Source of the DNA: an uncultured Clostridia bacterium
GTDB taxonomy: Bacteria > Bacillota > Clostridia > TANB77 > CAG-508
NCBI GenBank assembly: GCA_944386145.1
Contig: CALWZZ010000001.1
Span: forward strand, 1-42,120
DNA length: 42,120 nucleotides
Direction of reading: 5' to 3'
Below, piece by piece: positions 1 through 38,557 of this stretch (the stretch's first letter is position 1; every line of letters begins with the position of its first letter). Made by a program: the position numbers and the translations under genes. The notes below the pieces were generated by a model that was given only the letters and a program-made list of their open reading frames with translations, had not been told where the DNA came from and did no database searches.

Positions 1-140
1 AAATTGTTATCTTATCAAGTGGAAAAGTCGCGGTGCGCCAGCGATTTTACACTTGATAAGATTATAATTTGTTTATTCTGTAATGTTAGCCATTTAATGA
101 ATAAAATATTTATATATTACTGGTTTCTGATTTTACTTGA
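1..140. repeat. Window-truncated copy of a long AT-rich palindromic intergenic element, homologous to 21541-21736
   Basis: Positions 1-22 and 71-108 align by eye to 21603-21624 (19/22 matches) and 21676-21713 (31/38 matches). A 13-bp perfect inner stem (9-21 with 50-62) surrounds a GC-rich apex, gtcgcggtgcgccagcgat. The element lies just 3' of the last minus-strand GT2 gene (stop at 174). The left outer arm would lie upstream of the window. Confidence 0.6.
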
Positions 141-173
141 TATTTAAACTGTTAATTGTAACAAATTTTTTAA

Positions 174-19394: not shown

Positions 19395-20612
19395 TTACCC
19401 CTCTTTTATTATCTCATAATCACAGCTACACAATCCTTCTGAATGTAAAGCACCAAAATGGTTTCTAGGTACTTTAACCTTAAAACTTGTTGCATAATCT
19501 ACCTTATCATAGCTAAACATTATCTTTTCATCACATACAGATACTGTCACATAATAGGTATCTTCCGCAAAATTATTTCTATTGATTTTATAGGTCACTT
19601 TTTTCTCATCTTTGCCAATGAATTGGTCAATTCTTACAGAATTAATCGCTGTTGTGATTTCTCCTTTTGAATTGGAAATTAATAATCCTACACCATAATT
19701 GTCAATTTGTTTTAAATTTTCTAGTTCAATTGTGATATATATATCGTCAAATACATCATAGACCTCTTTGTCTGCTGTTACTTTTTCTACACGGATAGAT
19801 TTATTTTTATCATTTTTCTTCTTTTTCTTTTCTTTCTCAATTACTTCGATTTTTTCTTGGATTTGTTTTTCTCTTGGATTATCAATCATATACTTTTTAT
19901 ATTCATCTGTTACAAAACCAGTATCTCCATCTAGTACAATTTGTCCATCTCTCATCCAAATAGCTCTCGTACAGAAGTTTTTTATGGCATGTAAAGAATG
20001 GGATACAAAAAGAATTGTTGTTCCTTTTTTTCTAATTTCCTTCATTTTTGTAATAGATTTTTCTTGGAATGCCATATCTCCAACAGATAAAACCTCGTCA
20101 ACAATTAAAACCTCTGGTTCTACGTTAATTGCACAAGCAAAAGCAAGTCTAGCAAACATACCAGATGAGTATGTTTTTACAGGTTGACTTAAATGCTCTC
20201 CAATATCTGCAAAATCAATAATTTCTTGTTCCTTTGCTTTAATTTCCTCATTGGTCATTCCCATAACTTGTCCATGTTGATAAATATTTTCATATCCTGT
20301 TAATTCTGAATTAAAAGCTGCTCCCAATTCTAGTAAAGAACTGATTTTTCCTTTTACATGGATTTCTCCACTAGTTGGTACAACTACCCCTGTTACCATT
20401 TTTAATAATGTGGATTTTCCTGCACCATTTTTTCCTAGAATACCAAGAATTTCTCCTTTTTTAACATTCAAATTCAAACCATTTACTGCTCTAAAGGCTT
20501 GATGACGATTTACCTTTGGAAATAAAATTTCAATTAAACGGTCTTGCTTTCTAGCATACATTTTATATTCTTTTACTAAATCCTTTATTTCAATTGCATT
20601 TTCTTCATTCAT
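19395..20612 (-). CDS. Polysaccharide/teichoic-acid ABC exporter ATPase (Wzt/TagH/RgpD-like) with an extra C-terminal domain
   Basis: It has Walker A GKNGAGKST, the signature YSSGMFARL and Walker B LIVDEVLSVGD. After a lysine-rich linker, about 135 further residues (roughly 19398-19799) are beta-rich, as in Wzt C-terminal glycan-binding domains. Confidence 0.85.
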   Translation of the reverse strand: MNEENAIEIKDLVKEYKMYARKQDRLIEILFPKVNRHQAFRAVNGLNLNVKKGEILGILGKNGAGKSTLLKMVTGVVVPTSGEIHVKGKISSLLELGAAFNSELTGYENIYQHGQVMGMTNEEIKAKEQEIIDFADIGEHLSQPVKTYSSGMFARLAFACAINVEPEVLIVDEVLSVGDMAFQEKSITKMKEIRKKGTTILFVSHSLHAIKNFCTRAIWMRDGQIVLDGDTGFVTDEYKKYMIDNPREKQIQEKIEVIEKEKKKKKNDKNKSIRVEKVTADKEVYDVFDDIYITIELENLKQIDNYGVGLLISNSKGEITTAINSVRIDQFIGKDEKKVTYKINRNNFAEDTYYVTVSVCDEKIMFSYDKVDYATSFKVKVPRNHFGALHSEGLCSCDYEIIKEG

Positions 20613-20639: not shown

Positions 20640-21428
20640 TTATAATACATCTGCAAAATCTTTTTTGGCTCTTTTGAATATACTGTTTCCCCATACAAAT
20701 AAAACAACTACAATTATCCAAAATATAAGTGTATAAAATCCATATACCTCAAAGACAATATTTCCATCTATAAATACTTGACGCATTGCTGTAATTAGAT
20801 ATGTAAATGGCATACATTTTTCTACACTTAATAAAATACCATCGCCTAACATAGATAAATTCCAGATAATTGGTGTAAACCAGAAAATTAATTGCATAAC
20901 GATGGATAACAATTGTGAAAAATCTGGTACTAATGCACAAATAGCAGAAGTAAATCTTGTAAAGGCAAGTATAAATGCATATGCCGCAATTAATACATAG
21001 ATTAGCATTAAAATATTTGGAAAATATCCAAAACAACAACATACAATAATAGAAATAATCACTAAAAATAATCCTACTACTGCACATGATACAATAGATA
21101 TTGTTGGAATAATATCTACTGGAAAGACTAATTTTTTTACCAGATAACTATATGCTCTAATAGAATTGCTTGCATTCATAATCGTATCATTTAAAGTTAA
21201 CCATAATGCCATTGCTGGTATATACCAAACCACATAAGGGTCATTTCCTGCTGCTCCTGTTTTTAAAATATACTGGAATACAATAACATAAGTAAGCATA
21301 AAGATAAATGGTTGTATAAATCCCCATATTGCTCCTAAACTTGTATTGGCAAAACGATTTCTAAAATCGTTTTTTCCTAATTGCATAATTAATTTTCTAT
21401 TCTTGATTAGTGTCTTAAAAAAGTCCAT
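20640..21428 (-). CDS. ABC-2 type polysaccharide exporter permease (Wzm/TagG/RgpC-like)
   Basis: The protein has six TM segments and the typical N-terminus LGKNDFRNRFANTSLGAIWGFIQPF. I chose the ATG at 21428 (MDFFKTL) because a GGAGAG RBS lies 5 nt upstream. Confidence 0.85.
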   Translation of the reverse strand: MDFFKTLIKNRKLIMQLGKNDFRNRFANTSLGAIWGFIQPFIFMLTYVIVFQYILKTGAAGNDPYVVWYIPAMALWLTLNDTIMNASNSIRAYSYLVKKLVFPVDIIPTISIVSCAVVGLFLVIISIIVCCCFGYFPNILMLIYVLIAAYAFILAFTRFTSAICALVPDFSQLLSIVMQLIFWFTPIIWNLSMLGDGILLSVEKCMPFTYLITAMRQVFIDGNIVFEVYGFYTLIFWIIVVVLFVWGNSIFKRAKKDFADVL

Positions 21429-21465
21429 ATTTCTCTCCTTGTTTCTCTCTGTTTTTTCAAACCAT

Positions 21466-21494
21466 ATTGTATCTTTAATTCTATTATTTGTCAA
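21466..21494 (-). promoter_or_regulatory. Strong sigma-A-type promoter for the exporter operon
   Basis: The minus strand reads TTGACA, a 17-nt spacer, then TACAAT. Confidence 0.6.
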
Positions 21495-21540
21495 TTATAA
21501 AATTTGTTAATTTATTTTTCTGCGTCAAAAAATTTATTTA

Positions 21541-21736
21541 ATTAGTCAGAAGTTATATTATTATATTTTATGAAATTAAATGTGCTAATGGAGAAATATT
21601 ACAAATTCTTACATTATCAAGTGGGAGAATCTCAACCCCGCTTTGAGAGGGGCCTGCTTTATAATGTTAGAATTTGTATATTTCGCAATGCCAGCCATTT
21701 AATAAATAAAATATAATAATATAACTTCTGACTAAT
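21541..21736. repeat. Complete copy of the long palindromic intergenic element (homolog of 1-140)
   Basis: The outer stem is 31 bp and perfect (21541-21571 with 21706-21736). The inner arms are imperfect. The GC-rich apex is gggagaatctcaaccccgctttgagaggggcc. The element starts 11 nt after the stop of 21748-22491 (at 21748) and lies upstream of the exporter promoter. Confidence 0.7.
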
Positions 21737-21747
21737 CTTCATCATTT

Positions 21748-22491
21748 TTATGAAAAAATAGAATTTATAATTTCTTCATTTGACAATTCATTTCTTGCAT
21801 TTGTCGTAACAACAAATACTTTTTTATTATCCTTTTCGTAATGTTCGCAAGTTTGATAAGGGTCCATTTGTTCAAAAGGATATTCTACAATTTCTCCAGA
21901 AACTTCATCTGCCACATAACAGGTTCCAGTCATTGAAATTATATATAAATCCTCGCCATTCAACACATTTTGAATTTTCTCATCAATTTCATTACCATTT
22001 GTGGTATTTTCACACACCAAATATCCATCTGAATTAATAGAATATGTATTTTGTGTTGTATTATGCAACAACTCTAAAAATGCTTCTTGAGAATTACCAG
22101 CAACCCAGATACCTGTTTTATCTTGAAAATCTTCATCATATTGCCTTAAATTTTCTGGTCTTCCTTCTGGCATTTGATTTTCAATAATTCCTGCTAATAC
22201 TACATTGAATTGTACTTCTGGTTTTATGGTTAAAATTTTTCTACCATCATATTCTGATGTAACATCATAGATAGAATCATCTCCTGTTGCTCCAACATCT
22301 GCTTTTAACGCATCTACTGTTACATTTTCTTGATAAGCTACTTGATTTTTGTCAATTTCCACACCTTCTTGTGGTGTATATTCTATTACTTGCGAGTCTT
22401 CTGTTTCATTTTTTCTACTAAAGAAATATATTGCAATAGCAATTAAAATAATGATAACAATTATAATGACATATTTTATATATTTTTTCAT
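21748..22491 (-). CDS. Membrane-anchored extracytoplasmic protein of unknown function
   Basis: The protein is 247 aa from the ATG at 22491 (GGAGGAA RBS 8 nt upstream). It has a single N-terminal TM helix (YVIIIVIIILIAIAIYFF) followed by an acidic soluble domain. I recognised no family. Confidence 0.5.
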   Translation of the reverse strand: MKKYIKYVIIIVIIILIAIAIYFFSRKNETEDSQVIEYTPQEGVEIDKNQVAYQENVTVDALKADVGATGDDSIYDVTSEYDGRKILTIKPEVQFNVVLAGIIENQMPEGRPENLRQYDEDFQDKTGIWVAGNSQEAFLELLHNTTQNTYSINSDGYLVCENTTNGNEIDEKIQNVLNGEDLYIISMTGTCYVADEVSGEIVEYPFEQMDPYQTCEHYEKDNKKVFVVTTNARNELSNEEIINSIFS

Positions 22492-22506
22492 TTTTATCAT
22501 TCCTCC

Positions 22507-22549
22507 AAGGCACAAATAGATTGAAAAAATCATCATTGTTTTCAACCTT
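22507..22549 (-). promoter_or_regulatory. Leader hairpin motif, copy 2, upstream of the RBS of 21748-22491
   Basis: The minus-strand reading is aaggttgaaaacaatgatgattttttcaatctatttgtgcctt. It has the same flanking AAGGTTGAAAA and TTTGTGCCTT as 5774-5811, followed by GGAATGA and an A-rich stretch before the ATG. Confidence 0.45.
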
Positions 22550-22562
22550 TGTATACTTACTA

Positions 22563-22600
22563 CAAAAGGGACAGCAACTTCATACATGTCCCCTTTTTTT
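22563..22600 (-). terminator. Intrinsic terminator after the M14 hydrolase gene
   Basis: The minus strand reads aaaaaaaGGGGACAtgtatgaagttgcTGTCCCttttg, a GC stem followed by a T run. Confidence 0.6.
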
Positions 22601-29257: not shown

Positions 29258-29315
29258 CATTTTTTTACTTTATTTATAATTATATATGTATAATTTTGTT
29301 ACAATTTAACAAAAG

Positions 29316-29373
29316 CCAAAATGCTATATTTTTAATATTTTATGAATAAAATATTAAAAATATAGCATTTTGG
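29316..29373 (-). terminator. Perfect 27-bp AT-rich hairpin, probably a terminator after the guaB-like gene
   Basis: The left arm ccaaaatgctatatttttaatatttta, the loop tgaa, and the right arm taaaatattaaaaatatagcattttgg form the hairpin. On the minus strand it is followed by cttttgtt. Confidence 0.6.
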
Positions 29374-38426: not shown

Positions 38427-38557
38427 TCCAATTGGGGACGGAGCGATGACTTTGGGGACGGAGCAAAAAATCATCATTTCTATAAAGATTTTTGTAAAAC
38501 TTTTTATAGAATAAATGATGATTTTTTGCTCCGTCCCCAAAGTCATCGCTCTTGGAC
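38427..38557. repeat. Long near-perfect palindrome with 39-bp perfect arms
   Basis: 38441-38479 is the exact reverse complement of 38513-38551. The 33-nt centre is itself palindromic (tctataaa/tttataga). The outer gtccaa/ttggac adds 6 bp across a 9-nt bulge that duplicates ttggggacg. The element starts 5 nt after the ABC gene's stop. Confidence 0.8.

Follow-up and report, generated by a model that had tools for sequence, protein, structure and literature searches.

A nested palindrome of about 200 nt lies between two transcription units in the 42,120-nt stretch of DNA analyzed here (hereafter the window), and its presence raises the question of whether it serves the neighboring genes as a structured RNA, encodes a small protein or belongs to a mobile repeat. 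We conclude, at a probability of about 0.72, that the palindrome is the centre of a 258-nt non-autonomous MITE-like insertion, the arms of which are kept complementary by arm exchange. On this reading, it represents a new family within an already known type of element rather than a regulatory RNA in its own right or a small gene. The window is part of a MAG (G000; 1.63 Mb, 171 contigs, 28.8% GC, 74% completeness), and the close relatives compared with it were G305 (record CASFHP) and G306 (CALXAE), whose flank identity to G000 was 85–100%. All of the compared genomes were MAGs, in which palindromes and repeats assemble poorly.

The palindrome and its insertion site

The features of the locus and of the related copies in the window are summarized in Table 1. 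An inverted-repeat search and folding bore out the nested palindrome with its perfect 31-bp outer stem that had been described from the letters alone (the sequence-only reading). The inverted repeat was composed of outer arms 59 nt and inner arms 36 nt in length, each with 78% complementarity, the outermost 31 bp being perfectly paired. The RNA fold of the plus strand reached −85.3 kcal/mol (z = −14.7), a stability attained by 0 of 200 shuffled sequences, and that of the minus strand −79.8 kcal/mol. The GC-rich apex with its TCTCAA/TTGAGA pairing was likewise recovered, at 21630–21648. The stem was also rightly said to be abutted by no T run: the nearest T6 run was found 12 nt beyond the stem on the minus strand, and 0 terminator-like sites were predicted in 21300–21900. 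Comparison of the palindrome with Rfam 15 gave no match at the gathering score, and the search at E ≤ 10 returned only chance-level matches (E > 4). Outward-facing promoter-like hexamer pairs, TTAGCA-17-TATAAT and ATGCCA-18-TATAAT (10/12 each), occurred in both halves of the element, at 21560–21588 (−) and 21688–21717 (+); promoter-like hexamers within the arms numbered 5 against a shuffled expectation of 4.4 ± 2.2, showing no excess.

Table 1. Positions of the palindrome, its layers, the other copies and the neighboring genes in the window.
Feature	Position	Strand	Remarks
Nested palindrome, 196 nt	21541..21736	+	Inverted repeat and fold
Left outer arm	21541..21571	+	31 nt in perfect pairing with 21706–21736; sequence varies among copies
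Right outer arm	21706..21736	+	Partner of the left outer arm
Conserved imperfect-palindrome core (TTTTATGAAATTAAATGTGC...GCCATTTAATAAATAAAAT)	21566..21712	+	Mean pairwise identity 92%, 52 distinct copies
Type-A apex hairpin, TCTCAA-CCCCGCT-TTGAGA	21630..21648	+	Alignment of copies
Left shell	21496..21540	+	Degenerate homologue of the class-1b shell (...TTCACAGTTAAAAATTTGTCTAATT) of other copies; by-eye comparison
Short right shell	21737..21753	+	Gives the last sense codon and stop of gene B (TCA TAA, minus strand)
Whole insertion, 258 nt (left shell, palindrome, right shell)	21496..21753	+	Missing from the same site in G305
Gene B (upstream), 279 aa, weak AIM24-like match	21748..22587	−	C-terminus changed by the insertion
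Sigma-70-like promoter of the wzm/wzt-like operon, TTGACA-17-TACAAT, 11/12	21466..21494	−	Predicted
Gene A (downstream), ABC-2 type permease	20640..21431	−	
Wzt-like ATPase, after gene A	19395–20612	−	
Second copy, type B, right two thirds only	1..147	+	Remaining left part found at the end of contig C53 (77-nt overlap)
Class-1 terminal repeat (CTGTTAATTGTAAC)	149–162		Adjoins the type-B copy at 1..147
Third copy, core deleted	29316..29373	−	58-nt perfect palindrome: arms and 16 nt of core ends

The same-species MAG G305 was revealed to lack exactly the 258 nt of the insertion, at a flank identity of 95–96%, and at its empty junction (L129; ...ttatttgtcaat / aaaaatagagg...) the flanks were contiguous, with 0 nt of overlap or filler. 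Gene B ends in ...SIFS* in G000 and in ...SIFIDK* in the empty allele of G305, which indicates that its last three codons were replaced and that its stop was supplied by the insertion; a distance of 11 nt separates this stop from the palindrome. The stop that gene B has in the empty allele overlaps the −35 box of the wzm/wzt-like promoter, and in three other species an ordinary terminator occupies this position. The element would accordingly be pictured as having entered gene B in its final codons, immediately upstream of the wzm/wzt-like promoter, and any effects on the transcription of its neighbors would be a by-product. The promoter region of a glycopolymer-export operon and the C-terminus of the upstream gene thus differ among strains through a mobile insertion.

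The location is also the starting point of another explanation, namely that the palindrome is primarily a structured RNA selected by the host, its mobility being secondary; it would stabilize or terminate the mRNA of gene B at the 3' end, or else act as a small or antisense RNA. We regard this as very unlikely. The palindrome is situated 11 nt past the stop of gene B, where an intrinsic terminator is held in other species, and no other terminator was predicted here. An influence on the fate of mRNAs, as exerted by repeats such as ERIC, REP and Correia elements (PMC3733652), adds to the case for an RNA. However, the same-species empty allele works without the element, the stop of gene B merely overlapping the promoter there. 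Moreover, the U tract expected after the stem and a match in Rfam were both absent, and terminators were predicted in 4 of 19 element-bearing spacers versus 132 of 753 others. A genome-wide replacement of terminators by the element was also considered, for which this comparison by a simple scan (p = 0.76) was uninformative.

Copies, layers and turnover in related genomes

The sequence-only reading had counted a family of two copies, an estimate that was not sustained. A BLAST search of G000 with the palindrome gave 63 matches, and the genome-wide nhmmer census which that reading had proposed, when run iteratively, identified 32 non-overlapping loci, comprising 20 full-length copies inside contigs, 7 truncated at a contig end, and 5 fragments. 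The cut copies represent the typical repeat-induced assembly break, and the repeat copies explain the contig breaks of this MAG at these sites. Internal-deletion derivatives of many sizes were also present in G000, differing in the amounts of left and right core that they retained. As for the copy formerly placed at 1–140, the shared arms, the differing apex and the paired substitutions were all confirmed, but the copy proved to be truncated to the right two thirds of a full one. In the third copy of the window (CCAAAATGCTATATTTTTAATATTTTATGAATAAAATATT...), the whole core had been lost between two ATGAA repeats, and a class-1 end, GTTACAATT, adjoins the remaining 58-nt palindrome at 29298. The same site in G306 carries a full-length copy.

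Alignment resolved the copies into three layers: a conserved core of about 147 nt, AT-rich arms and, often, an outer shell derived from another repeat. The core, an imperfect palindrome whose mismatches are fixed, carries one of two apexes: type A (TCTCAGACTTGCTGTGAGA) or type B (GTCGCGGTGCGCCAGCGA), the latter being shorter by 3 nt. The AT-rich outer arms, 20–25 nt in length, are variable among copies and match nearly perfectly inside each copy. Further palindromic shells are often present, giving whole palindromes of 190–450 nt, and the unit size across mapped copies was 230–345 nt. One kind of shell, termed the class-1 unit, has GTTACAATTCACAG ends and occurs alone as well, as a 78-nt element; the other kind consists of GGGAC-type hairpin repeats. 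At least two further GC-rich structured cores, unrelated to that of the palindrome, were observed in the same type of arm (...GTATATATATTATATTTT, core, AAAATATAATATATATAC...), one at C20:5640–5900 and C102:1550–1810, where the two copies are oppositely oriented, and the other at C11:7171–7420 and C42:5940–6200 of G000. On the sequences at hand, a general architecture of arms plus an exchangeable core is suggested.

The distribution of the core was patchy within the genus, where about one fifth of the genomes contained it (5/24, then 7/36), and at the level of the order it was found in 1 of the 39 genera sampled and 10 of 251 genomes. Phage and plasmid collections gave no match to the core; a strain-level look-up by exact protein was likewise negative.

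The turnover of the family was assessed by concatenated-flank searches and junction mapping of 19 full-length G000 sites against G305 and G306. In G305, 8 of these sites were empty, 8 were filled and 3 were unresolved. The sites at C54, C31, C13 and C160 were empty in both G305 and G306, which points to gains in the G000 lineage, while the site at C16, filled in G000 and G306 and empty in G305, points to a loss. Four to five further sites were full-length in the relatives and internally deleted in G000. At some sites, extra segments of 0.6–2 kb were considered as candidate transposases and rejected, since they turned out to be accessory genes. Such strain-specific genes occupy C87:3063–5133, C3:30848–32879, C15:4956–5784 and C22:12800–13427 of G000, where the relatives have the repeat alone, and their products include a BspA-like leucine-rich protein, a PemK-like toxin, a HAD hydrolase and a nucleotidyltransferase/HEPN pair. 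As these genes are found exactly at repeat sites, the repeats mark hot spots of gene content.

We also considered whether the arms might be target hairpins that had existed before insertion. This idea was rejected for the arms because the empty site at C13:12020–12040 has no hairpin while its counterpart L103 is filled, so that the arms belong to the insert; in addition, only one precise arms-only hairpin was found in the genome, the other short forms keeping arbitrary remnants of the core. It applies, however, to certain outer shells (C44, C57, C13 and C12), where inserts are located at the tips of pre-existing hairpins: the insert at C44 lies in a terminator-like loop with no overlap, and those at C57, C13 and C12 lie within GGGAC-type hairpins. 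New copies may accordingly land at the tips of existing hairpins, which would build up onion-like nested palindromes.

Inversion of the interior was directly observed at two sites. At C3:4159–4332 of G000 and its G305 counterpart L081, the flanks are identical over about 80 nt on each side and the arms are identical, with the interior inverted between them. The second flip, between the starts of C53 and C29 in G000 and L097 in G305, where the flanks differ at a few positions, includes non-palindromic spacers and has its breaks inside the inverted repeats of the outer shell.

Covariation of the arms and strand orientation

The pairing of the arms was evaluated with 52 distinct copies, taken from G000 and from 11 'uncultured Clostridia/Eubacteriales' MAG records obtained by a pattern scan. 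The consensus structure of these copies contained 60 pairs, and the outer-arm pairs were each represented by 3–4 pair types with 92–100% pairing. When matched with their own partners, the arms paired at 94.5%, as compared with 64.4 ± 1.8% (maximum 70.4%, 500 shuffles) when matched with the partners of other copies. As many as 44 distinct arm sequences were present among the 52 copies, and the mean identity was lower in the arms (60%) than in the paired columns of the core (92%). The compensatory stem changes that the sequence-only reading had noted were therefore real, and much stronger than two copies could show.

Such strong covariation around a conserved core is a further point for the host-selected RNA. 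Arm exchange on the DNA level, however, accounts for the covariation no less well than does selection on an RNA, since the interior flips between strains were directly observed. Template switching is described as homogenizing the arms of inverted repeats and inverting the spacer between them (PMC8604942, PMC8794818). We propose that the arms are free in sequence, their complementarity within a copy being kept by template switching or gene conversion between the inverted repeats; the same exchange would flip the interior, and selection for an RNA helix would not be needed. The core would be spared from the exchange by its interrupted pairing, or else kept by selection for mobilization, and would probably be the part recognized by the mobilizing enzyme or by the host. 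Since perfect compensatory pairing here comes together with directly seen arm exchange, covariation in palindromic DNA repeats is no proof of a functional RNA.

The two strands of the element were not equivalent. The plus strand folded better in 20 of 20 copies, with a mean difference of 11.5 kcal/mol, and contained 94 G-U cells versus 17 A-C cells. The corresponding numbers of sites were similar (16 versus 13), which indicates that the G-U excess is largely inherited; its use as proof of the functional strand was consequently downgraded to a hint of selection on one strand. In the spacers of co-directional genes in G000, the better-folding strand was antisense at all 9 sites and at one single-flank site, and in the other MAGs it was antisense at 19 sites and sense at 2, giving an overall orientation relative to the flanking genes of about 28 antisense to 2 sense. 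The plus strand lay on the negative-GC-skew strand in 17 of 20 copies. A strong GC skew linked to gene direction is typical of low-GC Firmicutes and helps to orient contigs; the local skew in G000 was very strong (about ±0.15 to 0.25; e.g., ±8 kb per copy) and followed gene direction. One possibility is that the orientation bias arises from the survival of those copies that expose the weaker-folding strand on the lagging-strand template and in mRNA. The 92% identity of the core over many species, its fixed mismatches and the bias of about 28:2 despite frequent flips together imply some strand-specific constraint, which is a point against a purely selfish, symmetric MITE model.

That the bias is kept in spite of frequent flips also speaks for the host-selected RNA, but the best-folding, G-U-bearing strand is antisense to the neighboring mRNAs, and a conserved promoter upstream of the plus strand is lacking, as the flanks differ at every copy.

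The covariation set also bore on the possibility that the plus strand encodes a protein of 47–55 aa (MKLNVLMEKYYKFLHYQVGESQ...), to which we give almost no chance. The 48-codon plus-strand ORF at 21570–21716, reported earlier as having no ribosome-binding site, does exist as described and does lack such a site. In 38 of the 52 distinct copies the frame stayed open over 45 codons or more, and in 46 of 52 it retained its ATG; moreover, the lengths of the two apex types are exactly 3 nt apart, and the median stop-free run was 53.5 codons in this frame versus 24–33 in the others. Its interpretation as a gene was nevertheless not borne out. Variable sites were distributed evenly over the codon positions (14/13/16 in type A and 19/19/16 in type B), the frame was broken in 27% of the copies, and neither a ribosome-binding site nor a Pfam family was found for it. 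Furthermore, the frame extends into the variable arms and runs antisense to the flanking genes, and a conserved promoter is absent. An apparent coding periodicity in the per-cell counts (55/20/74) was rejected, because it stemmed from a few inherited polymorphisms and the per-site counts were flat. The openness of the frame is explained by its inheritance along with the conserved core.

Mobilization and relation to known repeats

The features described above are those of MITEs: the element is short, non-coding and dispersed in many copies, and it is present or absent at otherwise identical sites. The MITE-like repeat, one of the possibilities that had been raised from the sequence, was hence supported by the many copies, the same-species presence/absence, the deletion derivatives and the 8-bp duplications found in part of the family. 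The stricter notion of a plain MITE with no positional preference was upheld as regards the mobility of the copies, but not as regards their placement, which is strictly intergenic or at 3' gene ends with a strong orientation bias.

Target duplications had been suggested as an informative feature, and they divided the family. Among the class-1 units, recognized as 14 inverted GTTACAATTCACAG pairs, 5 were flanked by direct 8-bp sequences matching at 7 or more of 8 positions (4 perfectly), as compared with 0 of 28 adjacent-window controls, and 4 of the 14 units contained the core. The class-1 outer shell thus behaves as a true MITE. The perfect 8-bp duplications were located at C4:26045–26122 (CAATTATT), C68:2048–2126 (TATGTATT), C11:7171–7420 (ATTTTAAA) and C52:6318–6575 (AATTAAAA) of G000, and the class-1 units at C48 and C58 were observed in perfectly palindromic targets. 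At the other mapped sites, the duplication lengths were 8, 7, 5, 2 and 0. The copy at 21496–21753 has a duplication of 0 bp; while many copies possess GTTACAATTCACAG-type ends as terminal inverted repeats, it retains only a degenerate left version in its class-1-like shell and lacks the right-hand end. The missing duplication and the one-sided backbone end speak against the MITE-like reading for this copy.

Other genomes of the genus were likewise rich in the GTTACAATTCACAG ends; G064 alone gave 63 matches. Among the matches listed (12/15 genomes with the motif, G305 not being included), only single-unit inverted pairs less than about 430 nt apart were seen and no parent insertion sequence with GTTACAATTCACAG ends; nor was an autonomous element or a transposase with matching ends found among the matches listed, which is weak negative evidence, since MAGs rarely assemble insertion sequences. 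The MITE-like element would be mobilized by a transposase acting in trans and missing from these MAG assemblies.

A different mode of mobilization, which we hold to be unlikely, would make the element REPIN-like: one of the three HUH tyrosine transposases of the RAYT/TIRYT type in G000 would move it in single-stranded form, with the core hairpin as the recognition structure. Three RAYT/TIRYT-like Y1 genes were identified in G000, at C27:10878–11651, C24:13577–14305 and C6:10895–11650, with products of 243–258 aa, together with two ordinary IS200-like tnpA genes, at C160:14403–14954 and C110:352–849, which have GC-rich hairpins on their flanks. Each of the three RAYT-like genes is bracketed by its own inverted GGGAC-type repeats, and the C27-type (GGGGACGTTTCT..GAGACATTTTTATGT) and C24-type repeats form the outer shell of the copies at C2, C57, C73 and the L087 site. 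The absence of a target duplication at the copy 21496–21753, the bias of orientation relative to GC skew and gene direction (17/20 copies) and the better folding of one strand in 20 of 20 copies are also in agreement with this mode. A strong orientation bias is a hallmark of single-strand transposition.

Other observations spoke against this mode. In the element-positive genomes, the surroundings (about 1.2 kb) of 23 RAYT-like genes contained no match to the core itself (nhmmer, E ≤ 1), matches to the RAYT flanks being limited to the outer-shell repeats of some other copies. RAYT-like genes were present in most element-negative genomes as well, and co-occurrence was discarded as a link because Y1 genes were found in 49 of 61 genus genomes irrespective of the element. 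Better folding goes with the C-rich strand, which presumably is the leading-strand template, contrary to the strand rule known from the literature for IS608. HUH enzymes produce no target duplications, while part of this family has 8-bp ones. The copy at 21496–21753 also bears neither a GGGAC nor a GTAG tag, and the pattern of conservation is reversed in comparison with REPINs, which keep their ends and vary their spacer (PMC3116915). Elsewhere in the window, at 38434–38538, GGGGACGGAGCAAAAAATCATCA repeats form an inverted doublet, accompanied by a third such unit at 38434. This repeat also brackets the RAYT-like gene C6:10895–11650. In CASFHP, the intergenic site that corresponds to the doublet carries a copy of the palindrome family instead.

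In one more explanation, the conserved, asymmetric core would be a strand-specific functional 'cargo hairpin' hopping between unrelated backbones by insertion into hairpin tips, with its orientation relative to replication or transcription held by selection despite the flips. We judge this quite unlikely. Under this explanation, the core might be recognized as a hairpin by an enzyme that cuts such structures, or might act in cis as a signal in RNA or DNA, and the backbones could be a DDE-type MITE with 8-bp duplications together with RAYT/TIRYT-type repeats; if it were true, the core would be a shared module rather than the decayed interior of a transposon.

The identification of the palindrome as a MITE-like element removes a candidate riboswitch, small RNA or micro-protein from annotation. 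Its conserved middle part, its nesting at the tips of hairpins and its orientation bias would merit study should cultured relatives or long reads become available.

Among known repeats, ERIC and Correia/NEMIS elements are imperfect intergenic palindromes of 100–150 bp, with size variants produced by internal insertion or deletion and orientation-dependent effects on neighboring mRNAs. The present element resembles them in being an imperfect intergenic palindrome with size variants produced by insertion or deletion, and differs in that it occurs in another phylum, shares no sequence relation with them and is longer, more nearly perfect and built of nested shells. With REPIN/RAYT systems (PMC3116915) and TIRtron/TIRYT repeats (PMC3733652), it shares intergenic hairpin-forming inverted doublets with compensatory changes on both sides, and G000 has single-copy RAYT-like genes with their own GGGAC-type repeats, which are reused as the shells of several copies. 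Unlike in REPINs, whose ends are conserved around a variable spacer (PMC3116915), the ends vary here and the middle is conserved; the core is found beside none of the 23 RAYT-like genes, with no cognate transposase gene adjacent, and the GTAG and GGGGWSAS tags of REPINs and TIRtrons are absent from the copy at 21496–21753. Both outcomes of template switching, identical arms and a flipped spacer, were seen in this family; template switching is a mutational process and not an element family, and it is not known to have been described for repeats of this kind.

Close counterparts are found in bacterial MITEs such as QMITE1 and QMITE2 of Coxiella burnetii, which overlap the 3' ends of genes (PMC5896051). 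In contrast to these, the present element has a conserved centre flanked by long arms that are free in sequence yet self-complementary, one core is found in at least two unrelated backbones, a parent insertion sequence was not found among the matches listed, and the copy at 21496–21753 has no duplication and a single recognizable backbone end. Like QMITE1 and QMITE2, it is small and gene-less, occurs in tens of copies with a very stable stem and strain-variable insertions, and is located at 3' gene ends, where it sometimes supplies the last codons and the stop; and part of the family, in the class-1 units, recalls MITEs in its terminal inverted repeats and, at some of the sites, in target duplications of 8 bp.
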